NCBI GenBank assembly: GCA_037442925.1 | Contig: JBBIPG010000004.1 | Span: 1-60,493, forward strand | DNA length: 60,493 nucleotides | Reading direction: 5' to 3' | DNA from: Candidatus Fraserbacteria bacterium | GTDB lineage: Bacteria; Bipolaricaulota; Bipolaricaulia; RBG-16-55-9 | Shown here: piece by piece, positions 9,464 to 59,002 of the stretch | Position numbering within the stretch: the first letter of the stretch is position 1 | How the letters are laid out: every line of letters begins with the position of its first letter | Program-made: the position numbers and the translations under genes | Notes under the pieces: model-generated | Seen by the model: the letters and a program-made list of their open reading frames with translations, nothing else | Told to the model about the DNA's origin: nothing | The model's database searches: none

Positions 9464-9493
9464 TTGACAACTTCACCGTAGACCCCCTATGCT
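9464..9493 (+). promoter_or_regulatory. sigma70 promoter of the methyltransferase gene; imperfect direct repeat of 16811-16840
   Basis: TTGACA-N18-TATGCT. Confidence 0.6.
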
Positions 9494-9510
9494 TCGCAGA
9501 GGGTCACTTC

Positions 9511-12500
9511 ATGGGACAGCAGGCAAGCCACCGCGTAACACTTGAGGATCTGCGCTTGTGTCGAACCCCTGAAGCTTTGTGCGAATATCTGCTTCGCCCA
9601 TTGGGCTATCGTGTGGAAGAATCACTCCAGCCTCTCGATAAGCAAGCCCTCGACCTGGCTCCGGCTGAGGGGAGAGAGGTGCGCAAGATCTATCTGCTTG
9701 CCGATCACGATCGCCAGTTACAAGTGCTCCTTTGCGAACTCGAGAGCCTCGAGAGCACTCCTCTGAACGCACTGGCAAAGAACTTCCTGCGTCGGCCCGG
9801 CAACTATCTCTTGATCGCCACGCAAGATTACAAGACTCTTGTCTTCATCAATCCCCGCCGCCTGCTCGACGACGGCGCACGCCTGAAGATCAAAATCCAT
9901 AAACTCCTCGTCGATACGACCAATCCCACCCGCCACGACCTCGAAGTCCTGCAAGGCCTCTCCGTCGATGGGCGCTCTGCGATAGAGCTGTATCAAGCCC
10001 ACTGCGAGGCCTTCAACGTCGAGCGCGTCACGCAGCGCTTCTATCGCGAATATGCTCGGCTCTTCGAGCATCTCCAGCAACAAGTACACTCCCACAATCG
10101 CGGCATCGCCCAGTTCAAAGACAAAGCCTATCTGCACGCCTTTACCCAACGCCTGCTGGGGCGCGTGATGTTCTTGTATTTCTTGCAGAAGAAGCTCTGG
10201 CTCGCGGGCCATCCCCGCTTTCTCACAACTTACTATCAGCGCGTCGTGCTCGACAAGCGCAAGAACTACTACAGCGACTTTCTCGAAAAGCTCTTCTTCG
10301 AGACGCTCAACCGCCGACGAGCGGATGATCAATCGCCCTGGGGCAATATCCCGTATCTCAACGGTGGCCTCTTCGAGCGCGATTATCGCTTCATGCTCTA
10401 TCTGCCCAATGAACTCTTCGATCCCAACTCGGATCTGGGCATCTTGGGCTTCTTCAACAGCTGGAACTTCACAGTTCAAGAAGACACTCCCTTAGAGTCC
10501 GACGTGGCGCTCGACCCGGAGCTTCTGGGCAAGGTCTTCGAGAACATGATGGAGTCCGCCGAGCGCGAGCAGTCCGGCACATTTTACACTCCACGTACCA
10601 TCGTGCACTTCATGTGCCGCACGGCCCTTGTGGAGCATCTGTCTGACGAGACGAAGCTCCCTCGTGATCAAATCCGAAAGCTCTTTGAGCTAGACGATGA
10701 GAGTAAGCCGGAGCTCACCGTGGCCGAAGCCACACGGATCGAGAAGGCGCTCCGGCAGTTGCGTGTGCTGGACCCGGCAGTCGGGACAGCGGCCTTTCTC
10801 GTCAGCATGCTTCAAGAGATGATCGCGCTTAGAAGAGCCTGCGAGCGAGCCAAAGGAGCGGAAGTTCGAGTGGGCAGTGCGAAGATTGCCGAATGGAAGC
10901 GCGAGTACATTGCCAATTGTCTTTATGGTGTGGACATCAAAGAAGAGGCCATCGAGATCGCCAAGCTGCGGTTGTGGCTCTCTCTGGTCGTCGATCTGGA
11001 GCGCGATCAAGTCATGCCGCTGCCCAACCTCGATTACAAACTCATGGTCGGGAATTCTCTGATGGAGACGCTCGATGGACAGCCCATTCTCACGATGGAG
11101 AAAGGGCAGACAATTGCTCTGTTGCCCACGGAGACACAACGGGCCATCGAGGAGCTCCAGAAGCTCAAAGAGCAATTCTTTGAAGCCGAGCCGGAGGAGC
11201 GAGCCAAGCTACGTCGGGAAATCGAAGAGCAAGAGCGAGATCTCGTGCTCACGCACATTGCCGAGCGCCAACGCGAGATCGACTCTCAGATGAGGGCCAT
11301 TGAGTCACGGCGCCATCGCGGAAGGCTCGCACGTGCTGATGAAAAGCAGCTGGAGAAGTTGATCCAGTTGGGCGGCGCGCTCGCTCAACTGGAGAGCAAG
11401 ATCAATCAGGGCGAAGCGCTGCCGTTTTTTCTCTACAAGCTGCACTTTGCCGAGGTCTTTGCTGAGAAGGGCGGCTTCGATATTGTCATCGCCAATCCGC
11501 CGTATGTGCGCCAAGAGCGCCTCGATGAAGCTCAGAAAGCTGCGTTTCAGCAGGCTTTCGAGTGCTATCACGGCATGGCCGATCTCTATGTCTATTTTTA
11601 CGAACGGGGCTTTCAGCTCTTAAAGCCCAACGGGCTCTTGGCGTTCATCTCAAGCAATAAATTTTTTAGGGCGGGCTATGGCCGGGGCCTACGCGAGTTT
11701 CTCACAAGAAACGCGACCATTCAGACGATCATTGACTTTGGCGATCAGCCCGTCTTCGATGCGACGGCCTATCCGTGCGTGCTGGTTGTCAAGAATGGCC
11801 CGCCTGCCGATGCTGCCTCCGTCCGGGCGCTCACGGTGACGCAGATCGAGGACTTAGAGCATTTAGATCGGAAGCTGGCTTCCGAAGCAATAGTGCTGAA
11901 GCAGACAGATCTTTCGCCCGAGGGCTGGCGGTTAGAATCGCCACAGCTTTTGCGACTGTTGGAGAAGATAAAATCAGCGGGCGTGCCGCTGGGCGAGTAC
12001 GTGGGGGGCAAGTTTTATCGTGGGATTGTGACAGGATTGAACGAGGCATTTGTGATTGACGAGGAGACGAAGGAGAAGCTGATTGCGGAAGACCCAAAGA
12101 GTGCGGAGATTATCAAGCCGTTCTTGCGTGGGCGGGACATCAAGCGTTGGCGGGTGGATTTTCAGAAACGTTATCTGATCTGGACATATGTGGGAGTGGA
12201 CATCGAGCGTTATCCAGCTATCAAGAAGCATCTTGAGCAATTTCAAGAACGGTTAGAGAAGCGTTGGGACAAGGGTGACTATTGGTGGGAGCTTCGGCCC
12301 TGCGACTACTACGCCGAGTTCGAGAAGCCGAAGATTGTGTATCCGGATATTGCTCGCCGATGTGAGTTTGCTTTTGACGGCAACGGATTCTACGTTGACT
12401 GCACCATTTTCTTGATCCCGACAGACAAATGCTTCCTACTTGGGTTTCTTAACTCTCGCTTGATGAATTTCTGCTACTCGCACATCAGCCCCAGTATTCG

Positions 12501-12738
12501 TGGAGACTTCATGCGCTTCAAAACCATCTACATGGGCCAACTGCCGATTGCGCAGGCCACAGAGAAAGAGAAGACTCAAATTGAAAAGCTGGTCGCGCAG
12601 ATTCTCAAACAGCCCAAAGATGAGCGCGTCGCAAAGTGGGAACACGAGATTGACCAGATCGTCTATAAGCTCTACGGGCTGAGCGAGGAGGAGATTGGAT
12701 TGATTGAGGAGTGGGATGCGAAGAGGCAAAGAGACTAA
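9511..12738 (+). CDS. Eco57I-like / Type IIG-like N6-adenine DNA methyltransferase with C-terminal TaqI_C-type target recognition domain
   Basis: IPYLNGGLFE, LLGKVFENM, GTFYTPRTIVHFM, motif I VLDPAVGTAAF, GVDI, motif IV IANPPY, and C-terminal KPFLRGRDIKRW / EFEKPKIVYPDI. Confidence 0.9.
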   Translation: MGQQASHRVTLEDLRLCRTPEALCEYLLRPLGYRVEESLQPLDKQALDLAPAEGREVRKIYLLADHDRQLQVLLCELESLESTPLNALAKNFLRRPGNYLLIATQDYKTLVFINPRRLLDDGARLKIKIHKLLVDTTNPTRHDLEVLQGLSVDGRSAIELYQAHCEAFNVERVTQRFYREYARLFEHLQQQVHSHNRGIAQFKDKAYLHAFTQRLLGRVMFLYFLQKKLWLAGHPRFLTTYYQRVVLDKRKNYYSDFLEKLFFETLNRRRADDQSPWGNIPYLNGGLFERDYRFMLYLPNELFDPNSDLGILGFFNSWNFTVQEDTPLESDVALDPELLGKVFENMMESAEREQSGTFYTPRTIVHFMCRTALVEHLSDETKLPRDQIRKLFELDDESKPELTVAEATRIEKALRQLRVLDPAVGTAAFLVSMLQEMIALRRACERAKGAEVRVGSAKIAEWKREYIANCLYGVDIKEEAIEIAKLRLWLSLVVDLERDQVMPLPNLDYKLMVGNSLMETLDGQPILTMEKGQTIALLPTETQRAIEELQKLKEQFFEAEPEERAKLRREIEEQERDLVLTHIAERQREIDSQMRAIESRRHRGRLARADEKQLEKLIQLGGALAQLESKINQGEALPFFLYKLHFAEVFAEKGGFDIVIANPPYVRQERLDEAQKAAFQQAFECYHGMADLYVYFYERGFQLLKPNGLLAFISSNKFFRAGYGRGLREFLTRNATIQTIIDFGDQPVFDATAYPCVLVVKNGPPADAASVRALTVTQIEDLEHLDRKLASEAIVLKQTDLSPEGWRLESPQLLRLLEKIKSAGVPLGEYVGGKFYRGIVTGLNEAFVIDEETKEKLIAEDPKSAEIIKPFLRGRDIKRWRVDFQKRYLIWTYVGVDIERYPAIKKHLEQFQERLEKRWDKGDYWWELRPCDYYAEFEKPKIVYPDIARRCEFAFDGNGFYVDCTIFLIPTDKCFLLGFLNSRLMNFCYSHISPSIRGDFMRFKTIYMGQLPIAQATEKEKTQIEKLVAQILKQPKDERVAKWEHEIDQIVYKLYGLSEEEIGLIEEWDAKRQRD

Positions 12739-13207
12739 AAGTCAACGTGAAAAACCCACCAGGTCCGTTGTAGATCAGCACGCATCGGGAGAGAACGTCA
12801 CGACCCAACAGAACGATAATATCTCGTCCCGCAATGCTTTGCCCTGATAGATCAACACCGATGACCGAGCTGAACTCGAGTTCTAGCGCTTCTCCTGGAA
12901 AGCGAAACCTTGCGGGATACAAATGCTGCTGGACTCGCCCACCTGCTGTCCCAGTCGTAGTAACCCCGATTGGGTTCACACCCAGATTTGTAATGGCCTT
13001 TGAATCGACACAGCTCCGTGTAGCTCCCGTATCAATGAGCGCCCAGCCTGTTACAGGTGCAGGAATGGACTGGTTTTGCGCTGTGAGGAATTGAGCCAGT
13101 GCCGAGGGGATTGAGACTTCCACTTGCAAGAGAGGGCCTGCCTGTACCAAGACAGCGGGGTTAATCTGATTGCCCTGGCTAAGGAAGAAGCGATTATGAA
13201 CGGGCAT
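12605..13207 (-). CDS. Retropepsin-like (clan AA) aspartic protease; C-terminus reads through into the methyltransferase gene
   Basis: ALIDTGATRS catalytic motif and LLGRDVL second motif. ATG 13207 overlaps the upstream gene's stop by 14 nt. The fold appears to end near 12740 (GFFTLTF). Confidence 0.85.
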   Translation of the reverse strand: MPVHNRFFLSQGNQINPAVLVQAGPLLQVEVSIPSALAQFLTAQNQSIPAPVTGWALIDTGATRSCVDSKAITNLGVNPIGVTTTGTAGGRVQQHLYPARFRFPGEALELEFSSVIGVDLSGQSIAGRDIIVLLGRDVLSRCVLIYNGPGGFFTLTFSLFASSHPTPQSIQSPPRSARRAYRRSGQSRVPTLRRAHLWAV

Positions 13208-13442
13208 TGAGCAATCCCAAAGTGAGCGCAGGGAAGTGGACGACTTCCTCTTCCTTCGTGACCTTCTTGATGAGGAAGGGTTGATTACCAAATCTCTGAA
13301 TCCCAGCTTGGTAAGCTTCTACCTCTGTAGTAAAAGCTCCAACGAGTTGATCATCCTTGATCAAGACAAATTGATTTTCGTAATGCTTCAAGAGTTCGTC
13401 TTTGTGATCTTCGAAGTACTTCAACTCTTTCGCCAGGACCAT
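13194..13442 (-). CDS. Small DUF5678-like protein (82 aa)
   Basis: YFEDHKDELLKHYENQFVLIKDDQLVGAFTTEVEAYQAG..RFG..PFLIKKV pattern; GGAGGAGG RBS. Confidence 0.75.
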   Translation of the reverse strand: MVLAKELKYFEDHKDELLKHYENQFVLIKDDQLVGAFTTEVEAYQAGIQRFGNQPFLIKKVTKEEEVVHFPALTLGLLNARS

Positions 13443-13598
13443 CAGCTACCCTCCTCCGCCGGAAAAGATACCACACACTCTCACTTGTACCAACTTGTTC
13501 CACCTGAAGTATAGCAGTTACCTCTCTCAGGATCAAAATGCAGAGTTGGCCGAATGAGCCATCCATGCTACGATCAACCGTTACGGAGACTAAAGACT

Positions 13599-16500
13599 AT
13601 GCCCAGCTACTTGCCACCAGACTATATCGACAACCAGCACGAGACTCTGGCTGCGGCGCTACAGAAGATCATCCGCGATCTGGAGCAGCACGAGGCAGCT
13701 ATCGCCACGGGCTTCTTCGATCCTCGTGTGTGGGAACTCTTGCGAGAAGCATTGCCCCTCTTGAAGGAGTTGCGCTTGCTCATCGGCAAGGAGCCCGATG
13801 TCACCTATGGTGGCCTGGATCGCCTGGATCTGCGCCGACTCTATCGCCAAAAGCTCCAAAGCGATCTTGACGAAATGCCTTATGATGTGACTCATGTGAG
13901 ATTAGTCACAGAGCTGATCGAGTTTCTCAAGCGAGAATCTGTGAGCGTCAAGCTCTACAAGAAGGGCTTCCTGCACGCGAAGGCGTACATCTTTCCCGAG
14001 ATCGCTGTCGTGGGCTCGAGCAATTTCACGCCCTTTGGTCTGACGCGCAACTCCGAACTCAACTTGGTGCGCAAAGAGCGCTCCGTCGCCACAGATTTGA
14101 GAGACTGGTTCGACGCTTTCTGGGAAGAATCTGAGGACTATAAGCCTGAGCTGATTGAAACGCTGGAAGCTTCTAAATTTGGTGGCAAGCCCTACACGCC
14201 CTACGAAGTCTTCATCAAGACCCTCTATGAATACTTCAAAGACCGGCTCATTCCCGAAGCGCCCGAGAGCCAATTGGGGGTCGAACTGGCAGCGTTTCAA
14301 GAAGAAGGCTTAAAGGAAGCCATGCGCATTCTGGATAGACACCACTGCGTACTCATCTCGGATGCCGTGGGACTGGGCAAGACGTTCATCGGCTTGGGCC
14401 TGCTGGAGCATTATCTCTTGCGCAAGCGTCGTCGAGGTCATATCCCGCAAGGGCTGGTCATCTGTCCGGCTCAACTGCGCGACATCCTCTGGAGGCCCAA
14501 ACTGGCTGAGCATGGCCTCAGTGCCACGGTCGTCTCGCAGGAAGAAGTCAGCCGCGCAGATTTCCCGTGGAACGCTTATAAGAACTTCGATCTGGTCTTG
14601 GTGGACGAAAGCCACAACTTTCGCAATCCCGGCATCGGACGCTCTCAAAACCTGATGAAGCTGCTTTCCACAGGAAGACGCGATAAGCATGTCATTCTCA
14701 TGACCGCAACGCCCATCAATAACTCGATCTGGGATCTTTATCATCAGATGATGTTGATGGCCCGAGGAAGCGACGAGTACTTTCGGGATTGGGGCATCAG
14801 TAACTTGAAGGGCTTCTTCCGCAGGGTCGATCAAGGAGCCGCAGAGCTATTTGATCTACTGGAAGAGACGACCGTGCGTCGCAGCCGCTCTGATATCCGC
14901 AAGCGCCAAGAGGCCGGAGAAACCATTACGCTTCACGGCGAAGAAGTCAGATTTCCGCAGCGCGAATTGCAAGCCATCGACTACGATCTTGTCGCGACCT
15001 ATCAAGGTTTCTATCAAGAGATTGCCCGTAGCATTGAGGCACTCAGTCTCGTCAGCTACAACATCGAGGAATTCAAGCGGTCTCGCGATCCGGATCACGT
15101 ACATCGCATACAACGCAACAACGCGCTCATCGGCATCATGAAGACGCTCTTTCTCAAACGACTCGAAAGCTCGGTGGAGGCGTTTGAAGTGAGCATTCGC
15201 CGTCAGCGCCAATTCCAGCAACAGTTCTTCGAGCACCTGCTGCAGAATCGATTGCTAGACACTACAAACCATCGAAAGATTCTGGCCCTGGAACAAGAAG
15301 ACGATGAGGAGTCACTTGTGCAGATCATAGAGAATCTGCCAGAAGTCTCCATTGCTGAATATGATCTCAAGGCCATTCGTCGCGCCGTCGAGATGGATCT
15401 TCAGATCTTTGAGAGTATGGAAGAACGGCTTAAGAAAATCCGCAAAGCCACAGAACAAGACATCAAATTGGATCGCAAGCTGGAGCGCCTCAAAGCGGTG
15501 CTCCTGGAGCGATTTAGGGGGCAGAAGATCTTGATCTTCTCGTACTATCAAGACACAGCAATACATATCTATGAGCGGCTTCAAGGTGACTCAACGTGGA
15601 GTTCTCAAATGGGCAATCCTCGGCTGGGTCTAGTCTGCGGAGCTCGTTCTGTCTATAGCGAACCCGGCTCCGGTGAAGATCGTCATCTGCCGCGCGAGCA
15701 GCTCATCAAGCATTTCGCTCCGCTCTCCAATGCTGCCAATGAGGATGAACGGAAGAGCTTGCAAACACGAGAGATTCAGGTTTTAATCAGCACCGACGTG
15801 CTCTCCGAGGGGCAGAATCTGCAAGATGCTGCCATCTGCATCAATTATGATCTGCACTGGAATCCGGTGCGCATGATCCAGCGAGCCGGGCGGATCGATC
15901 GGCTCAATTCAAAGCACTCTCGAGTGACGGTGTGCAATTTCTTTCCAGAAAGAGGGCTTGAGGATCTTTTGGGGCTTGTCAAGCGACTGCAACAGAGAAT
16001 TACCGATATCCACAGAACCGTCGGCCTCGACACGAGCGTGCTAGGCGAGCGGGTGACCGAGCGGTCGCTGGAGGAGCTCAAGCGTCTCAAGTCGGCTGAG
16101 GAGGGCGTCTGGGAGGAGCTGGAGCGAGAGGTTGAGCTGCTCTCGTTGGATGAGATGAAGTTCCCTTTGATTCAGTGCCTGCAATCGTTGGGAGAAGACA
16201 GACTCAAAGAAATCCCCCTGGGCATTCATAGCGGGAGGCACGCTTCTCTTGATGGTCTCTTTCTGGCCTTCAGAGCGCGTGATCGCCATTTCTGGCGCTT
16301 CTACCCTGCGGATAAGAGCAGTCCTGTATGGAAGGAGAAGCGCAAGATCTTTAAGCTCATTCAATGCCCTATGGAGGAACCGCGGCAGATGCCGACCCCC
16401 AGGCCGGACGTGTTTGAGATCATGGATCGTGCAGTCAAAGACCTGCTAGAAGAGCTAAAGAGCGTTGAAGCCACACGCCGCATCAAGAGCCCTCTCAAAA

Positions 16501-16814
16501 GCATGAACCTCAAGCTCTACAGCGCGCTTCACCAAGGTTCGCAGTCTTCTCAACCCATATCTGCTGATCTGCGTGAGCGTTTGAGCGGCGTCTTGGAAGA
16601 GATTTCTCTGAAGCCCTTCGAGCGTGATCCGGCTCTGAAAGCGATCTGGCAGCAGTTTCAAAAGAGCGGTGATCTCAGAGCACTAGCGGATGACTTGGAT
16701 GCTTTCTTTGTCGAGAACGAACTCTATCGCGACATGGCTCCGCCGGCACTGCTGGAGCGAATTCGTGCAGAAGATCTGCAGCTTGTCTGCTATGAATTTC
16801 TCACGGCCCATTGA
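13599..16814 (+). CDS. PLD-nuclease / SNF2-family helicase fusion
   Basis: N-terminal FLHAKAYIF..AVVGSSNFT (PLD HxK/GSxN); SDAVGLGKT, LVDESHNFRN, MTATPINN, STDVLSEGQNLQ, NYDLHWNPVRMIQRAGRIDR. GGAG RBS before ATG 13599. Confidence 0.9.
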   Translation: MPSYLPPDYIDNQHETLAAALQKIIRDLEQHEAAIATGFFDPRVWELLREALPLLKELRLLIGKEPDVTYGGLDRLDLRRLYRQKLQSDLDEMPYDVTHVRLVTELIEFLKRESVSVKLYKKGFLHAKAYIFPEIAVVGSSNFTPFGLTRNSELNLVRKERSVATDLRDWFDAFWEESEDYKPELIETLEASKFGGKPYTPYEVFIKTLYEYFKDRLIPEAPESQLGVELAAFQEEGLKEAMRILDRHHCVLISDAVGLGKTFIGLGLLEHYLLRKRRRGHIPQGLVICPAQLRDILWRPKLAEHGLSATVVSQEEVSRADFPWNAYKNFDLVLVDESHNFRNPGIGRSQNLMKLLSTGRRDKHVILMTATPINNSIWDLYHQMMLMARGSDEYFRDWGISNLKGFFRRVDQGAAELFDLLEETTVRRSRSDIRKRQEAGETITLHGEEVRFPQRELQAIDYDLVATYQGFYQEIARSIEALSLVSYNIEEFKRSRDPDHVHRIQRNNALIGIMKTLFLKRLESSVEAFEVSIRRQRQFQQQFFEHLLQNRLLDTTNHRKILALEQEDDEESLVQIIENLPEVSIAEYDLKAIRRAVEMDLQIFESMEERLKKIRKATEQDIKLDRKLERLKAVLLERFRGQKILIFSYYQDTAIHIYERLQGDSTWSSQMGNPRLGLVCGARSVYSEPGSGEDRHLPREQLIKHFAPLSNAANEDERKSLQTREIQVLISTDVLSEGQNLQDAAICINYDLHWNPVRMIQRAGRIDRLNSKHSRVTVCNFFPERGLEDLLGLVKRLQQRITDIHRTVGLDTSVLGERVTERSLEELKRLKSAEEGVWEELEREVELLSLDEMKFPLIQCLQSLGEDRLKEIPLGIHSGRHASLDGLFLAFRARDRHFWRFYPADKSSPVWKEKRKIFKLIQCPMEEPRQMPTPRPDVFEIMDRAVKDLLEELKSVEATRRIKSPLKSMNLKLYSALHQGSQSSQPISADLRERLSGVLEEISLKPFERDPALKAIWQQFQKSGDLRALADDLDAFFVENELYRDMAPPALLERIRAEDLQLVCYEFLTAH

Positions 16815-16840
16815 CAACCATCTCGCTGACCCCTTAGACT
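16811..16840 (+). promoter_or_regulatory. sigma70 promoter of the molybdoenzyme operon; imperfect repeat of 9464-9493
   Basis: TTGACA-N18-TAGACT, overlapping the helicase stop codon. Confidence 0.6.
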
Positions 16841-31156: not shown

Positions 31157-32914
31157 TCAGTGCCTGACCACACAGAAGGGCAATCCCCGAATCTCCAGCG
31201 GACGGCTGTTATCGGGCGAGTGCACAACCATGCGCCCTTTTTCAAAATACGGGAGCGCCTTCTGATACTGCTTGGGAGCTCCGGCCCGCTCCGCCATCCC
31301 CTGCTCCATGCCTAACAAGATCCTGGTGCTGACTTGCGAGAGGACAGCCTCGCTCACATCTTGCGGGTTTTGCGTGATGAGCACAAGCCCCAATCTGTTC
31401 TTGCGACCCTGCTTGGCTGCCGTCACGAATTTTTCGGCGATGATGCGGTCTTGCTGGGTTTGAGCTTGCGTGAGGTAGCTATGGGCCTCGTCCACAGCCA
31501 GTATCACGGGATATTTCGCGATGCGTCGCCCCCAATCTGTCTCGATGGCCTTGGTCTTGGCATCGGCGATCAACGACATAACAGCCAGCACGACGACTCG
31601 CTCGCCCTCCGCGCTCAGGTGATTCGTCGGGAAGACGCTCACCTGATCCTCTCTGAAGATACTGTCGTAGAGTTTGGTAATGGAATTGGCTCCCTGATCG
31701 AAGATGTGGGCAAACTGGGGTAGCAGGACCCGTCGGCGGATGGCTCCCAGGGTCGCCTCGTGGATGAAGCCGCTGGCGAGATAAGGCTGCATGCGCGCTT
31801 CCTCTTCGAGGAATCGCCGAAAGGCCAGATACGTCCTGTCTTGTGAGTCTTTGAAGAAGTCTCGGATGAGGCGCTCGAGCGCTGTATACTGGGCTTCATT
31901 CAGCTCTCCTCCGGCGATGAGGTAGGGGAAATCGCCCACCAGCTCAAAGGGGATCATGAAATCGGTGTGGGCATCGCAGCCATGATAAGAACATCCGGCT
32001 TCCACGGCCGAGAAGACGGTCAACTTCTGGCCCACTCCACCCACTTTGGCGCCCACACCTACGAGGTTGTCTCGTTCTTCTGGCGGGACGCTCGGGAACT
32101 CAGGGTTCTCATCGCGGAGTCCCCAATACTCATTCTCAGGATCGATGATCACAAGGCACGGCTTGCGCTGCTCTCCGCCGCGTCGCTCCAGCGTGTACTC
32201 TGAACCCACAATCTGTCTTAGGAAGTTCTTGGCAGTATGCGTCTTACCCCGGCCGCTCATTCCGGCGATCAAGACGTGCGTAAAGATCAGTGGATCGCCC
32301 GTCTTCTTCGCATCGTTGATCAAGTAGTACGGGATCTTAAAGCCTCCGCTGAGCGTGATCGGCTCGCCGTTGACGGCCACATAGCCTAAGAAGAGTCCGT
32401 CATCGGGAAGATCAAGGCCCAGCACCACTTCGTCCTTGCTGGTGACACGCCGGACGAGCGCATTGGGTTTCGGGAGATAGCGGACTTCTGTCGGCAATCC
32501 TTCGGCGCTGATCATCGAGATGGGTTCAAGCTCCGCAAGCTGTATGTATTCGTCCTCTCCGACGGATTCCGCGCTGAGGAGCACGTGCACTTCACTCATG
32601 TCGTCGATGGCGTCACGTTTGCGATATGAGAGTCTCTTGACATACGCAAACAGCTTTTCGTCTCGATAATCGAGTGGGATGACGACATATTGGCCGACAG
32701 CCACATCGTTGCGCTTCCCTTCAGGAATGTAGACTTCAATGCAATGCTCTGTAGTGCTGATGAAAAGCTCCTCCGAGATGGCGACACGCCCGATCTCCTC
32801 GGGTTTGAGAGGTCTAATGCCTGCGCGCTCGTCTTCTGGTGTCATAACCCGTTCGGTAGAGCGCCTGATTCTCTCCAGTTCTTTGTCGAGATCGAATTCT
32901 TCTTGCTTTGCCAT
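31157..32914 (-). CDS. herA: HerA-family DNA translocase/ATPase
   Basis: N-terminal HAS-like region, GMSGRGKT, IIDPENEY, VDEAH, KQGRK..LGLVLITQNP. Confidence 0.85.
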   Translation of the reverse strand: MAKQEEFDLDKELERIRRSTERVMTPEDERAGIRPLKPEEIGRVAISEELFISTTEHCIEVYIPEGKRNDVAVGQYVVIPLDYRDEKLFAYVKRLSYRKRDAIDDMSEVHVLLSAESVGEDEYIQLAELEPISMISAEGLPTEVRYLPKPNALVRRVTSKDEVVLGLDLPDDGLFLGYVAVNGEPITLSGGFKIPYYLINDAKKTGDPLIFTHVLIAGMSGRGKTHTAKNFLRQIVGSEYTLERRGGEQRKPCLVIIDPENEYWGLRDENPEFPSVPPEERDNLVGVGAKVGGVGQKLTVFSAVEAGCSYHGCDAHTDFMIPFELVGDFPYLIAGGELNEAQYTALERLIRDFFKDSQDRTYLAFRRFLEEEARMQPYLASGFIHEATLGAIRRRVLLPQFAHIFDQGANSITKLYDSIFREDQVSVFPTNHLSAEGERVVVLAVMSLIADAKTKAIETDWGRRIAKYPVILAVDEAHSYLTQAQTQQDRIIAEKFVTAAKQGRKNRLGLVLITQNPQDVSEAVLSQVSTRILLGMEQGMAERAGAPKQYQKALPYFEKGRMVVHSPDNSRPLEIRGLPFCVVRH

Positions 32915-32943
32915 GGTCCTCACTCATCCCCCTCGTGGGAGTC

Positions 32944-34212
32944 TCACATCAGTTCACTCCGGCTCTGATTATAGCTCCAATCGAGGTCAATCCCGCAGGC
33001 GCGAATCAACGCGGCACTCTCTTCTTCGGTGATACGGGCTCGGCTGTCCGCTCGCCGGATCGCAGGCGGAACCCCTTTGCCCTGGGCGATCTCTGCCAGG
33101 ATTTGCGCACGTAACCGTTCGGGTTCATGTTTCTCAAAGACGATGCGCGGGCACTCGACTTTCAGCACGGCTTTCACCCTCGGATCGTACACGTAGAAGA
33201 AACAGACGTGGTAAGCGCGGGACGGGTGCATTAATTCAAACGATCCCAGGCGCTCAAAGATATCGAAGCTCTCTACGCTCTGTCCTCGACGCTGCGGAAG
33301 CGAGTAGCCCTCCTGCACGAACCAGTTGGTGTACCCAATGGCATCTTTGGGCGTGTTGCTGAGCACAGCCCGCATGAACTGTGCATCGCTGGACCAGTTG
33401 TGGGATTCTGGCTCCAGCGTGAATTCCAAGAACCATGAGGTGCTCGGGTTTTTGTTGAAGCCCACTATAGCAAACCCACGTGCGGCAAACTCCTCGACAA
33501 CTCGCACGGGCTGAGCCAAGATCTCAATAGCGGGCTTCCACTCCGTCCAGCTTGCTCTTATGCCGTTCTCTTCCGGCCAGATCTGATCTTCTCCGGAAAG
33601 ATAGTAGTAGAGCCCTATGGGGTATAGATTCCCATCCAGAATCCAGAGGCCCTGCTGCGGCTTGAGTTCTTGCCGCATACGTCGAGCGTGATACGACTCA
33701 GCTGCCATTCGGGCAAGTCCCCCCACGACGCGCTCAACCTCGTGCTCCAGATATGTCCGCGAGATATGAATTCTCCAGAAGTGAACGTACTCATCTTGAG
33801 ATGTCTCAGATTTTGCGCCACCTAGATCTGTCCTCTGAGAGTGAGAGACCAGTGAGAGCGAGCGAAAGGCCTCCAATGGGAGGTCTTTGTGGCGAGTATC
33901 TGGATCACTGGACAACACGGCTTGATAGGCGCAGAGCATGGTGCCGTTCTCCAATTGCTGGAGGCGTGTGCTGCCACCATCAATGGCATACACGGGCTCA
34001 TACTCTGGGAACGAATAAGCGGCCAACTGCAATACGCTCTCGGAGCGATACTCCAGAGGAGTGAGTGCTTGTATTGCTCCCTTGAGGTGCAGCTTCTCGA
34101 ACAACTGGCGGGCTTCCTCGCGGTGGTTGGGGCTCAGGCGTTGAACTTGTTCGCCGAAGGCTTTCAGTTGATTTCGTAACGTCTGCTTGGCTTCGTTGGA
34201 GAGCATCCTCAT
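32944..34212 (-). CDS. nurA: NurA-family nuclease
   Basis: YAIDGGS, ESYHA, ILDGNLYP and C-terminal G.G.P.AI..AD..ARI; sits between rad50 and herA. Confidence 0.78.
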   Translation of the reverse strand: MRMLSNEAKQTLRNQLKAFGEQVQRLSPNHREEARQLFEKLHLKGAIQALTPLEYRSESVLQLAAYSFPEYEPVYAIDGGSTRLQQLENGTMLCAYQAVLSSDPDTRHKDLPLEAFRSLSLVSHSQRTDLGGAKSETSQDEYVHFWRIHISRTYLEHEVERVVGGLARMAAESYHARRMRQELKPQQGLWILDGNLYPIGLYYYLSGEDQIWPEENGIRASWTEWKPAIEILAQPVRVVEEFAARGFAIVGFNKNPSTSWFLEFTLEPESHNWSSDAQFMRAVLSNTPKDAIGYTNWFVQEGYSLPQRRGQSVESFDIFERLGSFELMHPSRAYHVCFFYVYDPRVKAVLKVECPRIVFEKHEPERLRAQILAEIAQGKGVPPAIRRADSRARITEEESAALIRACGIDLDWSYNQSRSELM

Positions 34213-36620
34213 CTCACCCGATAGACGCGGCTGGTGTTGTCTGCGGTCTTCTCCGTGCGATACTCGTGATCGGCTCCTTCGACAAGTCCCAATTCGTGCG
34301 AAACCACAATCACTTGACCAATACGCCCACCCAGTTCTTCCAGTAGAAACTGCAAGCGATTCACCCGCTCGCGATCCAAATAGATCGTGGGCTCATCGAG
34401 GATGAGCGGCATGCGACTGCTGGCTTGTGCCAGCACCTGATGGATCGCTGAACGAAGTGCGATATTGATGAGCGCTCGCTCACCACCGGAGAGCAGATCA
34501 GGCCGAATGGTACTTCCGTTCTTGAGTTCTACCGTGATATCGTAGTCCTCGGACACGCGTACGCCACGGTAACTCGCGCCCGAATCCATGAGTCGAAAGA
34601 ACTGATTGAAATAAAGCTCAAGGGCCTTGATGTTGCGCGTGCGTAGTTCCCTTTTGAGTGCACCATAGAATTCTGTGAGCTGCTCGAGTTCCGCTTGAAG
34701 GCGCTCGATTGCGGTCAGTTCCGCATCGTTCTGTGCGAGTTCTTCTCTGTACTTCTTGAGCTGCTCCAGTTGAGTGTCAATCTTCCCACGTTCTTGGTGT
34801 AGAGCGCCGATCTCTTGCTCCCGTTGCTTCTTTTGATCCTTGAGCTGCTGTAGCACGACCAATACCTGCTGTGATCTCTTCTCCAGTTCAGCGATATCGG
34901 GCAGACTCCTCTTGATATCTGCAACCTTGGTGCGGATACGGGTCAGCTCATCTCGAAGGGATTCCATGCTCTCCATGAGCGTCTGGCGCTCCTCTTTTCG
35001 CTGGAACCCCTGGTCTTTGATCTGCAGGAGGCGTAGCGCCTGCTCCTTCAGTTGTTCGAGTTGAGTCCGTCGGTTTGCCAGCGCCCTGAACTCTTCGTTC
35101 AACTGCTGGACGGCTTTGTCGGCTTCCCTCTTTAGGGAGCCGATCTCTGCCTCTAGAGTCTGGAGTTTCTCTCTCTCTCGTTGGACTTCTGAGTTCAACT
35201 TCACAAGCGACTTCTCTTTCTGTTTCAATGTGGCGCTATACGTGTTTTCGTGTATGGGTTGCTTGCAGGTCGGGCACTTGCCTTGTTGAATCAGCGCGTC
35301 CATCTCTTCGAGTTCTCGTTGGAGGTTCCGCTGCTGGGTCTCTGCCTGCGCCATGGATGTAAGCAAAGACTCTTTCTCTTTGGAGAGGTTGTCAAGCTGT
35401 TCGGCCATGCGCTTTTGGCGTTCTTGCGTCTGAGAATGGAGGGCTTCTTGCCGTTCGTTCGTTCGCGTCAACTCTTGAGGCAGAATTTCAAGTTCTTCCC
35501 AGTTCGAGGCCTTGCTGAGGGATTTTATCACGGGTTCTTTGGACAATCCCAGCTGCGTGAGCGCTTTGCCGAACTGCGTTTCCAGCTGTTTATATCTCTG
35601 CTTTAGGCTCTCCCGTTCCTGGTCACATTGCTGGACTCTCTTCTCCGCATCGCGAAGTTGCTTCTCCTTCTGCGTGAGTTCTTCGGTACGTTCCTGGATT
35701 TCACGGGTCTGTTCCTCGATGCGCCGGAGTCTCTCCTTAAGACCATGCTGGAGCTCTTCCGCTTGGGAGATCTTCTGCTCAAGTTTTTGGAGTTCAGCTT
35801 GCTGGGCGCGGAGTCTCTCTTCGAGATCTCCTCGGCTTCTCTCGAGATTCTGTCTTTCTCGTTTTTCAATCTCACGCTTCAAGTCTGAAGAGAGTGTGCG
35901 GAGCACATCCAGCCGACGATTGAGAGCTCGTTGCGCCCCTTCTTGTGCTCGCTTGGCGTAGCGATCCAGCTTTTCAAGTCGCAGCAGTCGATCGATCATG
36001 CGACGACGTTCTTCCTCGCTCGTGCGGATCAGCCGATCGATCTCTCCCTGGCGTACGTAGACGCAGTTGGTAAAGTCATCGCGGTTCATGCCGAACAGTT
36101 CTTCAATAGCTTGAGCAACATTCTCGACTCCGAGCCACTCCTCGCCGTCATCGCGACTCAGGCGGCAGTCCTCTTTCTCACTGATGACATGGTCTCCGCG
36201 CCGTCGTAGAGCCATCTGGGCAAGATAACGCTGTGTTCCATGGGAGAATGTGAGCCGCACAGAACCGACATCGGCTCCGATGCGAAGGATATCTGGGAGA
36301 GAGCGATCCATTGCCGGACCGGCTTTGCTCCCATAGAGAGCGAAGAAGACGCTCTCCAGCAGTGAAGATTTCCCGCTGCCGTTGGGGCCCGCGATTACGG
36401 TGACTCCATCTTCAAAGGCGATCTCGGCGTGTTCATAGCACCAGAGGTCTTCAATCTGGAGGGATTCCAACTGCATGGCAGGGGTATGAGATTCCTTCGG
36501 GAGAGTTGGATGCCTCTTGCTTGGCGGTGGACTGGTGGGAAGATCTCTTTCAACGGGCTCACGTTCGCCCTCGGTGCGGGTGAGCAAATCTAGCAGACTC
36601 TGTTCCTTCTTCTTGGGCAT
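34209..36620 (-). CDS. rad50: Rad50/SbcC SMC-like ATPase
   Basis: GPNGSGKSS, Q-loop YVRQGEI, coiled coils, Zn-hook CPTC, LSGGE, LDEPT, VSH. Alternative start at ATG 36476. Confidence 0.93.
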   Translation of the reverse strand: MPKKKEQSLLDLLTRTEGEREPVERDLPTSPPPSKRHPTLPKESHTPAMQLESLQIEDLWCYEHAEIAFEDGVTVIAGPNGSGKSSLLESVFFALYGSKAGPAMDRSLPDILRIGADVGSVRLTFSHGTQRYLAQMALRRRGDHVISEKEDCRLSRDDGEEWLGVENVAQAIEELFGMNRDDFTNCVYVRQGEIDRLIRTSEEERRRMIDRLLRLEKLDRYAKRAQEGAQRALNRRLDVLRTLSSDLKREIEKRERQNLERSRGDLEERLRAQQAELQKLEQKISQAEELQHGLKERLRRIEEQTREIQERTEELTQKEKQLRDAEKRVQQCDQERESLKQRYKQLETQFGKALTQLGLSKEPVIKSLSKASNWEELEILPQELTRTNERQEALHSQTQERQKRMAEQLDNLSKEKESLLTSMAQAETQQRNLQRELEEMDALIQQGKCPTCKQPIHENTYSATLKQKEKSLVKLNSEVQREREKLQTLEAEIGSLKREADKAVQQLNEEFRALANRRTQLEQLKEQALRLLQIKDQGFQRKEERQTLMESMESLRDELTRIRTKVADIKRSLPDIAELEKRSQQVLVVLQQLKDQKKQREQEIGALHQERGKIDTQLEQLKKYREELAQNDAELTAIERLQAELEQLTEFYGALKRELRTRNIKALELYFNQFFRLMDSGASYRGVRVSEDYDITVELKNGSTIRPDLLSGGERALINIALRSAIHQVLAQASSRMPLILDEPTIYLDRERVNRLQFLLEELGGRIGQVIVVSHELGLVEGADHEYRTEKTADNTSRVYRVR

Positions 36621-36682
36621 AGTCTCTCGTGAGGAGTATAGTTGAACGAGTCAGGGGAGAGCAATGAACTTTGGGAAAATTA

Positions 36683-37732
36683 TTACGGTCTCTTCACTAA
36701 CGTTTCGAGCAACTTCGTGACCTCTTCGTCCACTCTCGAATCAGCGACCTTCGGATGGCGAATGATGCCATCGATATCACGAGTCGCCTCCGAGACGTTC
36801 AGTTGTGCCAGCCGTTCGGAGATGAGCGCATCGAGATTGCCGAACTCGAGTTGCACATCCACCCCCTGCTCCCCTTCACTCGACTCTTCTCGTTGGTCTC
36901 GCACACGCACAGCCAAAGCTCCTCGCGAGCGCGCATGTTCCTCAATCTCTTGAACGCGGTGCCCATCACGCGACAGATACACACAGACGACTGCACCCTT
37001 GAGCTGATCTCGATGGGCATCGATGCTCTTGATGGGATCTTCCTCTTCACTGATGTAGAGAAATCTGCGAGTAGGGAGTTCGCGGCGATCCAAGCGTCCC
37101 CTCTTAAGATCGATCAGACTCACTCCTCGCGGCTCGCGCTCATCCAGGCTCCAGCGCTCGGTGCTGCCGGGATACGTGATGAGCACATTCTTATCGTGCC
37201 AGATCTGATGCTCATGATAATCCCCCAAGAGCACATACGGAGCGCCGCAGGCAACTAGATCATCGTAGCGCAGCTCGCCATCGGCGCGGATGCGGTCTAT
37301 CAGCTGATGGCAGACCAGTACGTCTCCCTTTACGTGGAGCAGTTTTACATCGCGACGGCCCGCGTAATCCATGCCATAAAACTTCACACCATGGAGTTCG
37401 TACGGCTCTGAATTGAGATGTACTGCCAAGCCAAGCTGAGCGAAGAGATCGAGCCACTGCACTCCGCGCCGCTGCTCGTGGTTGCCCACGACCCCCAAAA
37501 ACGGGATGCCCACCCCTTTCAACTGGAAGAGCGTCCGAAGCGTCTCGTGAAGGTCTTCTGCTGTGGGATACCGATCATCGAAGAGATCACCAGAATGAAC
37601 GACGGCATCCACTTTTTCTCCGATAGCGATCTCAATGACTTGATGGAAGGCGTGAGAAAAATCAGCTCGCCGTTCTTCAAGACCATACTGGCGGCTGCCG
37701 ATGTGTGTATCCGCCGTGTGGAGGACTCTCAT
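36683..37732 (-). CDS. mre11: Mre11/SbcD nuclease, euryarchaeal-like
   Basis: ADTH, HSGDLFD, VGNHE, LLGDYH, YPGSTER. Confidence 0.92.
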   Translation of the reverse strand: MRVLHTADTHIGSRQYGLEERRADFSHAFHQVIEIAIGEKVDAVVHSGDLFDDRYPTAEDLHETLRTLFQLKGVGIPFLGVVGNHEQRRGVQWLDLFAQLGLAVHLNSEPYELHGVKFYGMDYAGRRDVKLLHVKGDVLVCHQLIDRIRADGELRYDDLVACGAPYVLLGDYHEHQIWHDKNVLITYPGSTERWSLDEREPRGVSLIDLKRGRLDRRELPTRRFLYISEEEDPIKSIDAHRDQLKGAVVCVYLSRDGHRVQEIEEHARSRGALAVRVRDQREESSEGEQGVDVQLEFGNLDALISERLAQLNVSEATRDIDGIIRHPKVADSRVDEEVTKLLETLVKRP

Positions 37733-57440: not shown

Positions 57441-58934
57441 TCAGTCAAGAAAGGCCAAAGTCGGAAGGATCTCCGGTGATACGAGATCCCTCTCTACTGC
57501 GTAGCGCATCAGTCTCTTCATACCCCCCTTGAAGTTGAACGCACGATAACCCACTTGACGCATGCGTTCTGCCAAGTGCGCGCTCTTCAGCCCCAGCTCG
57601 CAGTAGAGCACATACGTGTGATCGCGATCCAGAGTGGCGTAGTCTTCCAGGGCCTTGAAGAAGTCCATGAAGATCGCACCTGGGTAATGCCACGTGCGAT
57701 AGGAGGCGGGTGAACGTAGATCGATCACAACCGCTCCCTCAGGGATCTCTTCGATTTCCATCTCCGGCGAGGCCAGCTCTTCGGGATCGAGATCTCTTAA
57801 ACTAAAAACCCGTCTCTCGGCGATGGCCTGCTCTAGCACGGAGAGGTCGAGCTGCTGTTCCTCGGCTAGGACATGTTCCAGTGAGGCCCGTGTGGCCGGA
57901 TGGCGAGGTACGATAGCACAATACTCCGCTACAGCGGCAGAGATCTCATAGGTGCCGATGTGACGCGCCTGAGCGATAATCTCTTCTTTGTTGAAACCAA
58001 GAAGCGGCCTGAGAACGGGTAACTGAGCCACAGGAGAGATGACATATAGATTCTGGAGCGTCTGGGAGGAGACCTGACCGACAGCTTCTCCTGTGACGAT
58101 ACCCAATCCACCTACCTCGTGAGCCACCCGCTCGGCTGCCCGATACATGAACCGCTTGAGCAGCACCTGCCAGTAACGGGCTTGAGTCTTCGCCTGCATC
58201 TCGCTTACCAGTTGCTGAAAATCGATGGCATGGAGCCGAGGTTCGTCGCCGTAGCTCCAACGGTCGCCGAGCACGTTCAGCACGCGCAGCACACCCTGCT
58301 GATGTGCACGGCCGCCCAGATTGCAGAAGACATAATCCAGTGCGACACCTCGCTTGAGCATGAACCACGCTGCCACAGCCGAATCAAACCCCCCAGAGAT
58401 GAGCGCGACAGCACGGCCCTCGATTCCCAAGGGCAATCCGCCCGGACCCGAAATCTGGTCTGTGAAGAAATATGCTTGGCCATCCCGCATCTCAACATGC
58501 ACCGTCACTTCGGGATTATCTAGATCGACCTTGAGGGCGTGAGGAAGAAGCGCAGCTCCTAGTGCGCGCGCCACATCTTGTGAACCGAAAGATCCTCCCG
58601 CTCGGTGATCGGCGCGTCGGGCCCGCACGGCGAAACGCTTACCATGGACGGGTGAACGGAAGAGTTCTTCACCCGCTTGCACGATCTCTTCTAGATGTGT
58701 GCCAGCACGGCGTTCCACAACAGAAAGGGATTGGATTCCGAAGACACGCGGAAGAGTCCCTGTAGCTTCAAGACTGGGGGTCTCAATGTAGATGCGATCC
58801 CAGTCCCGCTTCAGCTGGAAAGAACTTCCCGCCAGCGCCTCTTTGATGTTGCGAGCCAAGCGCTCTGTGAAGCGAACTCGTGTCTGCCGGGCTTTGGTGC
58901 TGATTTCTCCAGACAATCGAATCAAAATAAGCAT
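57441..58934 (-). CDS. thiI: tRNA 4-thiouridine sulfurtransferase with THUMP and C-terminal rhodanese domains
   Basis: GEISTK, SGGFDS PP-loop, TGEAVGQVSSQT, RPL, EYC; rhodanese LYCELGLKS. Confidence 0.93.
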   Translation of the reverse strand: MLILIRLSGEISTKARQTRVRFTERLARNIKEALAGSSFQLKRDWDRIYIETPSLEATGTLPRVFGIQSLSVVERRAGTHLEEIVQAGEELFRSPVHGKRFAVRARRADHRAGGSFGSQDVARALGAALLPHALKVDLDNPEVTVHVEMRDGQAYFFTDQISGPGGLPLGIEGRAVALISGGFDSAVAAWFMLKRGVALDYVFCNLGGRAHQQGVLRVLNVLGDRWSYGDEPRLHAIDFQQLVSEMQAKTQARYWQVLLKRFMYRAAERVAHEVGGLGIVTGEAVGQVSSQTLQNLYVISPVAQLPVLRPLLGFNKEEIIAQARHIGTYEISAAVAEYCAIVPRHPATRASLEHVLAEEQQLDLSVLEQAIAERRVFSLRDLDPEELASPEMEIEEIPEGAVVIDLRSPASYRTWHYPGAIFMDFFKALEDYATLDRDHTYVLYCELGLKSAHLAERMRQVGYRAFNFKGGMKRLMRYAVERDLVSPEILPTLAFLD

Positions 58935-59002
58935 GATGATGCAAAGCAATTGTACGGCTTCATTTTGCGCGACTGCAAGCGCCGAAGTCCCCCGTGGAAG
59001 AC

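Follow-up and report, generated by a model that had tools for sequence, protein, structure and literature searches.

Several restriction systems, including Type III (EcoP15I), Type ISP (LlaGI), NgoAVII, CglI and SauUSI, couple a nuclease and an ATP-driven SF2 motor to a site-specific methyltransferase (MTase) or reader. Cutting by this class of enzymes requires more than one site or dimerisation, and NgoAVII, CglI and SauUSI use phospholipase D-like (PLD) nucleases. To our knowledge, neither EcoP15I and LlaGI nor NgoAVII, CglI and SauUSI pair a gamma-class MTase bearing a target recognition domain (TRD) with a PLD-SNF2 fusion. A pair of this kind was described in 2018 as orf33/orf34 of plasmid pLd8 from Lactococcus lactis FM03P (PMC6098607), and is also present in a 2023 inversion survey among Cj0031-like loci (PMC9881135). 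In MANTIS, which is the same system as Gao_RL and BREX-related (BR) type 2, the MTase provides sequence recognition for methylation and restriction alike (bioRxiv 10.64898/2026.09.23.753747; PMC12839542). The MANTIS effector, MtsD, is a dimer with PLD and SF2 domains and a single shared PLD active site, as seen by cryo-EM, and its targeting depends on the MTase complex (bioRxiv 10.64898/2026.09.23.753747). We have analysed a pair from a Candidatus Fraserbacteria bacterium (Bipolaricaulota; GenBank assembly GCA_037442925.1, contig JBBIPG010000004.1, positions 1 to 60,493); this whole stretch of 60,493 nucleotides is referred to below as the window. As in the pLd8 and Cj0031-like loci, a MTase with Eco57I and TaqI_C domains and no restriction domain is found next to a protein with PLD, SNF2 and Helicase_C domains. 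The MTase gene (9511-12738, 1075 aa) and the PLD-SNF2 helicase gene (13599-16814, 1071 aa) share the plus-strand orientation, with housekeeping genes on both sides. Our results suggest, with a probability of about 0.68, that the two genes of the locus make up an ATP-dependent defence module resembling restriction-modification. What is shown here is the domain content with its intact motifs, the coupling of the two genes across genomes, and a MTase in which no nuclease can be recognised.

The MTase and the helicase form a conserved unit that is inherited together. We gathered 96 loci with helicase relatives from metagenomes, plasmids and genome assemblies, and searched the open reading frames (ORFs) of these loci with an iterated hidden Markov model of the MTase. 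A scan of genome contigs with the single helicase sequence had returned only 3 loci, and a metagenome scan with an alignment was used instead. A preliminary description of this DNA, made from its letters and a list of its ORFs, had singled out co-occurrence in other genomes as decisive for its interpretation of the pair, and the pair does co-occur: an Eco57I-like MTase was present in 19 of the 20 helicase loci having at least 8 kb of upstream and at least 5 kb of downstream sequence, and in 38 of the 41 having at least 5 kb upstream. In each of the 48 non-redundant pairs the two genes share one orientation, the MTase being upstream in 43 and downstream in 5. When the search was reversed, a PLD-SNF2 gene was found downstream of each of three MTase homologues that had been chosen only for their long contigs, one of them from Limnospira indica PCC 8005. 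Across 44 loci, the matrix of pairwise similarities for one protein correlated with that for the other (Spearman coefficient of 0.41), and none of 500 label permutations reached a value as high (Mantel test). These co-occurrence statistics rule out a chance juxtaposition within a defence island. The pair occurs in Chloroflexota, Cyanobacteria (Limnospira, Microcystis), Deinococcus, Bipolaricaulota and Lactococcus and on haloarchaeal plasmids, and its loci are found on plasmids and beside integrases, type IV secretion system genes or pPIWI islands. The window locus is a member of this family in that a co-oriented, TRD-bearing MTase without a nuclease lies within about 10 kb of a PLD-SNF2 helicase with the C-terminal domain of the family.

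Matches in Pfam, PADLOC and NCBIfam, together with homologues, identify the MTase as an N6-adenine DNA methyltransferase of the gamma class with a C-terminal TRD. The Pfam matches are to Eco57I (1.8e-44), TaqI_C, N6_Mtase and MmeI_Mtase, while the best PADLOC matches are REase_MTase_IIG profiles (1.3e-130; 435 bits). Members of this family are commonly annotated as 'Type IIG' or 'Eco57I restriction-modification methylase', and the public names of homologues include 'type II restriction endonuclease'. The NPPY motif and the TRD reported in the preliminary description are both present: the former, catalytic motif IV, occupies aa 662-665 (11494-11505) and the latter, of the TaqI_C type, aa 869-1013 (12115-12549; PF12950, 4.8e-18). 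Motif I, which binds S-adenosylmethionine, indeed reads DPAVGTAAF instead of GSGAF (aa 421-429; 10771-10797). As conservation of DPAVG and of the last F reaches 95% or more in 113 homologues, this odd form is a signature of the family and not a defect. By inspection, a charged, helical (coiled-coil-like) insertion of about 105 aa (11116-11430) separates motifs I-III from motif IV; the 171 positions of the Eco57I profile are stretched over 281 residues of the MTase, and the insertion region does not align to CamA. This insertion is poorly conserved and highly charged, and may be a coiled-coil arm for dimerisation or partner docking.

No nuclease of its own was found in the MTase, METHYLTRANSFERASE, by profile, residue conservation or fold, and the earlier statement that it has no recognisable PD-(D/E)xK motif holds as far as it is testable. 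The Type IIG profile of PADLOC, which is nearly full-length, aligns to the MTase only from aa 159, and an alignment of homologues has no acidic or lysine position within aa 1-130 that is conserved as in a PD-(D/E)xK triad. The N-terminal region (aa 1-345; 9511-10545) is conserved in the family and consists of an alpha/beta domain (about aa 1-150) followed by a helical domain. An AlphaFold2 model of this region is confident, with a pLDDT score (predicted local distance difference test) of 86.7. Comparison of the model with the Protein Data Bank (PDB) by Foldseek gave nothing significant (best E value of 0.016, at a TM score of 0.15), and Type IIG enzymes were absent from the 50 Foldseek matches listed. 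A profile of the region had no match in the PDB even at E = 10. Neither the fold nor the profile search connected the N-terminus with MmeI or another solved Type IIG enzyme. The authors of the L. lactis study likewise found no restriction domain in their MTase (PMC6098607).

The most likely start of the helicase is the ATG at 13599, within an ORF that is open from 13554 (13554-16814, 1086 aa). This start is favoured because a GGAG lies upstream, because the ATG and the Shine-Dalgarno sequence are conserved in a related locus (L006) where the ATG at 13554 is not, and because it fits the N-termini of homologues, which begin MPxYxPPDY. A single HKD/PLD nuclease domain (PLDc_2, aa 47-190; 13692-14123) contains one HAK (aa 141-143; 13974-13982) and then GSSN (14013-14024), in keeping with the one HxK-bearing PLD domain reported previously; the H, the K and the GSSN are invariant in the family alignment. 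This domain is followed by a SNF2-type SF2 ATPase core (14370-15905) with SNF2-rel_dom and Helicase_C matches, in which GLGKT (14370-14384), DESH (14604-14615), TATP (14703-14714) and QRAGR (15879-15893) are all intact. Its nearest solved relatives are RapA, the top PDB profile match, and chromatin remodellers, and the best relatives of the window protein are from Chloroflexota-like metagenome-assembled genomes. The last ~200 residues (16131-16811) form a family-specific C-terminal domain. It was found in 119 clusters at 50% identity among 1.84 billion proteins, always at the C-terminus. Neither Foldseek nor PDB profile searches matched this domain to a known fold, including the modified-base readers (SRA, EVE, PUA-like), using an AlphaFold2 model with a pLDDT of only 71. 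The best PADLOC match of the helicase is C3a139 'HKD+Snf2', which is merely a candidate type III CRISPR-associated cluster (PMC6546367).

In the module that we propose, the MTase would methylate a short sequence on host DNA and would also serve as the specificity subunit, recruiting or licensing the PLD-SNF2 effector at unmethylated sites through a putative contact. The domain content of the effector suggests that it would translocate on double-stranded DNA using ATP and then cut, two copies probably joining their PLD halves into one active site for cleavage. As there is one HKD motif per chain, cutting is predicted to occur only as a dimer, and dimeric PLD cutting in turn predicts a need for two sites or for a collision of motors, as in Type III, Type ISP and MANTIS. 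A two-component restriction system, with recognition by the MTase and translocation and cleavage by the PLD-helicase, had been put forward in the preliminary description and is supported by the comparative evidence; that the MTase methylates self DNA, that it recruits the effector, that the effector translocates and cleaves as a dimer, and that the pair acts in defence at all are steps that we infer.

Loci with a decayed MTase are informative about targeting. In two of these (L006, 5076-6458; L007, 3-1406) the MTase is reduced to its last 460 aa, and in another (L001, 1622-3124) a DDE transposase gene is present in its place with a 124-aa MTase remnant. The helicase is full-length in all three, at 58-78% identity. 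Retention of an intact helicase after loss of the MTase would be expected if the nuclease depends on the MTase to reach its targets, in the way of Type I and Type III systems. A nuclease able to locate unmethylated DNA unaided would kill cells that lack the MTase; hence, tolerance of the helicase in such cells fits with targeting being provided by the MTase. A variant locus on plasmid pJM1F of Lactococcus cremoris (L015, 1737-10230) has the helicase before the MTase, with an inverted, TaqI_C-only gene of 264 aa and a Mpi-family invertase directly after. This arrangement looks like a specificity shufflon, and the spare inverted TaqI_C with its invertase points to a switchable specificity that governs the whole system. 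Two such loci are listed in the inversion survey (PMC9881135).

Other variants were seen among the helicase relatives. A helicase without a MTase (L064, 2539-12712) is N-terminally shortened (929 aa) and lies beside a complete three-gene pPIWI_RE island of the prokaryotic Argonaute type. A distant clade of PLD-SNF2 proteins (24-31% identity), which do not have the C-terminal domain, was detected on IMG/VR contigs (L113, 9539-18939; L108, 9995-21576; L137, 9992-19101). The order of genes in this clade is PLD-SNF2, DUF4391, a N6_N4 (Mod-like) MTase and a gene with ResIII and RE_endonuc domains (Type III Res-like), a neighbourhood that looks like a Type III system plus a PLD motor.

The gap between the MTase and the helicase is a variable slot for unrelated toxin-antitoxin, abortive-infection-type or signalling genes. 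In the window, the gap is 860 bp and is occupied by two small genes on the minus strand, which the preliminary description passed over in treating the partners as adjacent. The island is only in part compact, as had been claimed, since these two unrelated genes separate the partners. The first small gene (12605-13207, minus strand) is a clan-AA (retropepsin-like) aspartic-protease-like ORF whose annotation is weak (Asp_protease_2, 3.2e-5; TIGR03698, 2.5e-4, below the cut-off) and whose 3' tail is antisense to the 3' end of the MTase gene over 133 nt. It overlaps by 14 nt with the second (13194-13442, minus strand), which is divergent from the helicase gene and encodes a DUF5678-like protein of 82 aa (PF18929, 6.7e-4, below the cut-off). 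The 82-aa gene is 85% identical to the gene at the same position in locus L006, with differences mostly at third positions, a coding pattern. Upstream of it is a promoter-like site (TTGATC, 17-nt spacer, TATACT, with TG; 13508-13536, minus strand) whose -10 element is conserved in L006. The two genes may be a toxin-antitoxin-like cargo pair; neither protein had a match in the plasmid collection.

Across pairs, the gap ranges from 4 to 8790 bp, being smaller than 100 bp in 16 pairs and at least 740 bp in 26, and the cargo varies by locus. PIN toxins were found in five loci, and other loci contained AbiEii, HEPN_AbiU2, Hypoth_Ymh, SMODS with SLATT_4, GmrSD_N/DUF262, RES, Peptidase_M78, SDH_protease, DUF4411, DUF3644 or Mrr_N. 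The closest relatives of the window pair (74-78% identity) occupy different chromosomal sites and carry other cargo, consisting of an 82-aa gene with a PIN gene in one case and of five genes in another. A similar insertion hotspot has been reported within the hma operon (PMC11232893). Among cyanobacterial loci, the slot of one holds a full sigma-70-family gene (L099, 13367-14845) and that of another an IS605 OrfB/TnpB-like gene (L098, 15411-16742).

Some of our observations weigh against a two-gene module. With two genes on the opposite strand separating them, the window MTase and helicase cannot share a single transcript, and a promoter and terminator scan found no consensus promoter before the helicase. 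A few helicases are solitary (L059, L064), and our literature search found no experiment on any member of the family. The absence of a nuclease fold from the MTase N-terminus is a negative result obtained with Foldseek and HMMER, and PD-(D/E)xK folds are notoriously divergent. As nuclease folds can be cryptic in this way, we retain a small chance that the MTase is an ordinary single-chain Type IIG enzyme with a very divergent N-terminal nuclease, the helicase being an accessory or a neighbour with a separate job. The Type IIG profiles that best match the MTase and the restriction endonuclease names of its homologues agree with this explanation, and the mixed sheet of the N-terminal alpha/beta domain could conceal a degenerate endonuclease fold. 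However, the Type IIG profile does not extend into the first 158 residues; aa 1-130 have no conserved acidic or lysine triad; the N-terminus resembles no solved chain by fold or profile; and the L. lactis authors also saw no restriction domain. A Type IIG enzyme would, moreover, leave a near-obligate, co-oriented and co-diverging helicase unexplained. It is similarly unlikely that phages are excluded in a BREX- or DISARM-like way, without cleavage, by a complex that blocks replication or injection on unmethylated DNA, with the PLD domain having a secondary role or another substrate. Such a mechanism would suit the relatedness of the MTase to PglX and DrmMI and of the helicase to DrmD, and cleavage by MANTIS has not yet been reconstituted in vitro. 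Set against this, no PglZ, BrxC, DrmA or DrmB was found in the scanned ORFs of the window, and the family-wide invariance of PLD residues, those of HKD and GSSN among them, speaks for a role in catalysis.

An autonomous, modification-dependent helicase (i.e., a Type IV enzyme similar to SauUSI) with an unrelated or antagonistic MTase as its neighbour is very improbable. SauUSI does share the PLD-then-SF2 order, and solitary helicases such as L059 and L064 would be accounted for, but the C-terminal domain, in a model of moderate confidence, contains no SRA, EVE or PUA-like reader. A modification-dependent nuclease beside an active MTase would also attack self, yet the pair is conserved across phyla. 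We give very little weight to the suggestion that the pair, instead of acting in defence, serves in epigenetic regulation, with a partner akin to chromatin remodellers, or in DNA repair. The housekeeping genes on both flanks in the window, and the housekeeping roles of SNF2 proteins such as RapA, to which the helicase has its top PDB profile match, are compatible with such a function. Against it stand the patchy distribution, carriage by plasmids and mobile elements and differing insertion sites in close relatives, as well as the defence-type cargo, the TRD shufflon and the frequent decay.

It is possible, although doubtful, that the pair is a minimal, self-sufficient and ancestor-like form of DISARM/BREX/MANTIS methylation-based immunity in which one MTase and one PLD-motor effector operate without an AAA+ loader, with a hand-off between terminal domains and a bookended cargo slot. 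In such a form, a new hand-off from MTase to motor would be mediated by two terminal domains that have no solved relatives, one at aa 1-150 of the MTase and the other covering the final ~200 aa of the helicase. The two genes would 'bookend' a dedicated integration slot in which backup genes (toxin-antitoxin, Abi, CBASS-like, GmrSD) are swapped and perhaps co-regulated.

The surroundings of the window locus were examined for partner genes and for signs of mobility. Upstream of the pair are genes for a 4HBT thioesterase and an epimerase, and downstream are genes for 2Fe-2S and molybdopterin dehydrogenase subunits (Pfam); the ORF list and these matches bear out the earlier picture of two large co-oriented genes amid housekeeping genes. 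DrmA, DrmB, PglZ, BrxC, DUF499 and DUF3780 were all absent, by Pfam and PADLOC, from the flanking ORFs and the scanned window ORFs of at least 440 aa, a scan that left out a 502-aa ORF at 57441-58949 and, beyond the flanks, ORFs smaller than 440 aa. The preliminary description, which had proposed a PADLOC search, was therefore correct for the scanned ORFs in reporting no drmA/drmB or pglZ/brxC genes. The remaining scanned ORFs of at least 440 aa are housekeeping genes or belong to a HerA/Rad50-like repair operon. This operon (31157-37732, minus strand) encodes a HerA-like DUF87 ATPase (588 aa), a Rad50/SMC-like AAA_23 protein (803 aa) and ORFs of 422 and 349 aa; it resembles a HerA-NurA/Mre11-Rad50 repair cluster and is unlinked to the MTase-helicase pair. 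A sigma-70-like promoter match (TTGACA, 18-nt spacer, TATGCT; 9464-9493, plus strand) lies upstream of the MTase gene, but this is a match to a consensus that may not be that of the host. Positions 9464 and 16840, the ends of the stretch marked out in the preliminary description, are both sigma-70-like hexamer matches. Searches for direct or inverted repeats flanking the island gave nothing above chance-level matches of 14-28 nt, and no integrase or transposase was present in the window.

The pair is widespread and has been noted in print, but we found no name for it in the literature, and its MTase is usually mislabelled in databases as a one-protein 'Type IIG' enzyme. If our model is true, many genes that now bear the name 'Type IIG' or 'type II restriction endonuclease' would encode one half of an ATP-dependent system of two proteins, the half responsible for modification and specificity, while the nuclease would reside in a neighbouring gene that pipelines name just 'helicase-related protein'. 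The annotations affected would include those of Limnospira/Arthrospira, Microcystis, Nostoc, Deinococcus, Lactococcus plasmids and many Chloroflexota. The module would then hinder the transformation of cyanobacteria and of dairy starter strains, with a bearing on genetic tractability, and would also bear on the interpretation of methylomes. Among known cases of a PLD-SF2 effector under the direction of a PglX-like MTase, it would be the simplest. The module is unlikely to astonish a specialist, but it is clean and minimal, and the pair would be convenient for studying how hemimethylating MTases license a motor nuclease, a question that applies equally to BREX, DISARM and MANTIS. The cargo slot is a useful lead and could be mined for new defence genes.

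In comparison with known systems, membership of DISARM, BREX, MANTIS/Hma, Type III, Type ISP and SauUSI was rejected on the defining features of each. Type III and Type ISP enzymes, NgoAVII, CglI and SauUSI differ from the window pair in MTase class, position of the nuclease and subunit layout. MANTIS resembles the pair in being methylation-based and in having an N-terminal HKD/PLD domain fused to a SF2/SNF2 motor, an effector architecture that is present here. However, MANTIS requires a DUF499 AAA+ ATPase (MtsA) and a DUF3780 protein (MtsB), neither of which is found in the scanned ORFs, including those of the gap. The MTases also differ, as that of MANTIS belongs to the alpha group, with DPPY, a central TRD and a DUF1156 N-terminus, whereas the window MTase belongs to the gamma group, with NPPY and a C-terminal TaqI_C domain. 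The only whole-protein model compared, NCBIfam NF042964 ('phospholipase D-like domain-containing anti-phage protein'), which is not tied here to a named system, gives the window helicase 149 bits against a cut-off of 1100. Class 1 DISARM shares with the window an Eco57I-type adenine MTase (DrmMI), a SNF2 helicase (DrmD) and a PLD nuclease (DrmC), and the DrmMI and DrmD profiles match the window proteins. DISARM differs in its core genes, DrmA and DrmB (DUF1998), which were not found here, and in having a free-standing PLD nuclease where the window has a PLD-SNF2 fusion. The scores are consistent with this distinction, as the NCBIfam DrmD and DrmC_I models give 136 and 18 bits against cut-offs of 610 and 133, and the PADLOC DrmMI match to the MTase (160 bits) is weaker than the Type IIG match.

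The window MTase itself is most similar in layout to Type IIG/IIL enzymes (the MmeI and Eco57I family) and to BREX PglX, with which it shares a gamma-class core, a helical spacer and a C-terminal TRD. Type IIG enzymes have a N-terminal PD-(D/E)xK nuclease in the same chain and by themselves cut DNA at a set distance from their site; this endonuclease domain is not recognised in the window MTase, which does have the MTase domain and TRD of a Type IIG enzyme. PglX acts with PglZ and BrxC, and no such partners accompany the window MTase. PglX models score it at 29-95 bits against cut-offs of 400-900, the best at 95 against 500. 'Type IIG' genes beside a SNF2 helicase in Prevotella intermedia (PMC5608340) are possibly related. 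Among the known systems, the Lactococcus pair comes closest, with the same domain content; both proteins of the related plasmid pJM1F match those of the window at ~30% identity. These two versions of the pair differ in organisation: in Lactococcus, the helicase comes first, is longer (1233 aa) and is accompanied by a spare TRD and an invertase, whereas the window version belongs to a Chloroflexota/cyanobacterial clade in which the MTase comes first and the cargo genes are in the gap.

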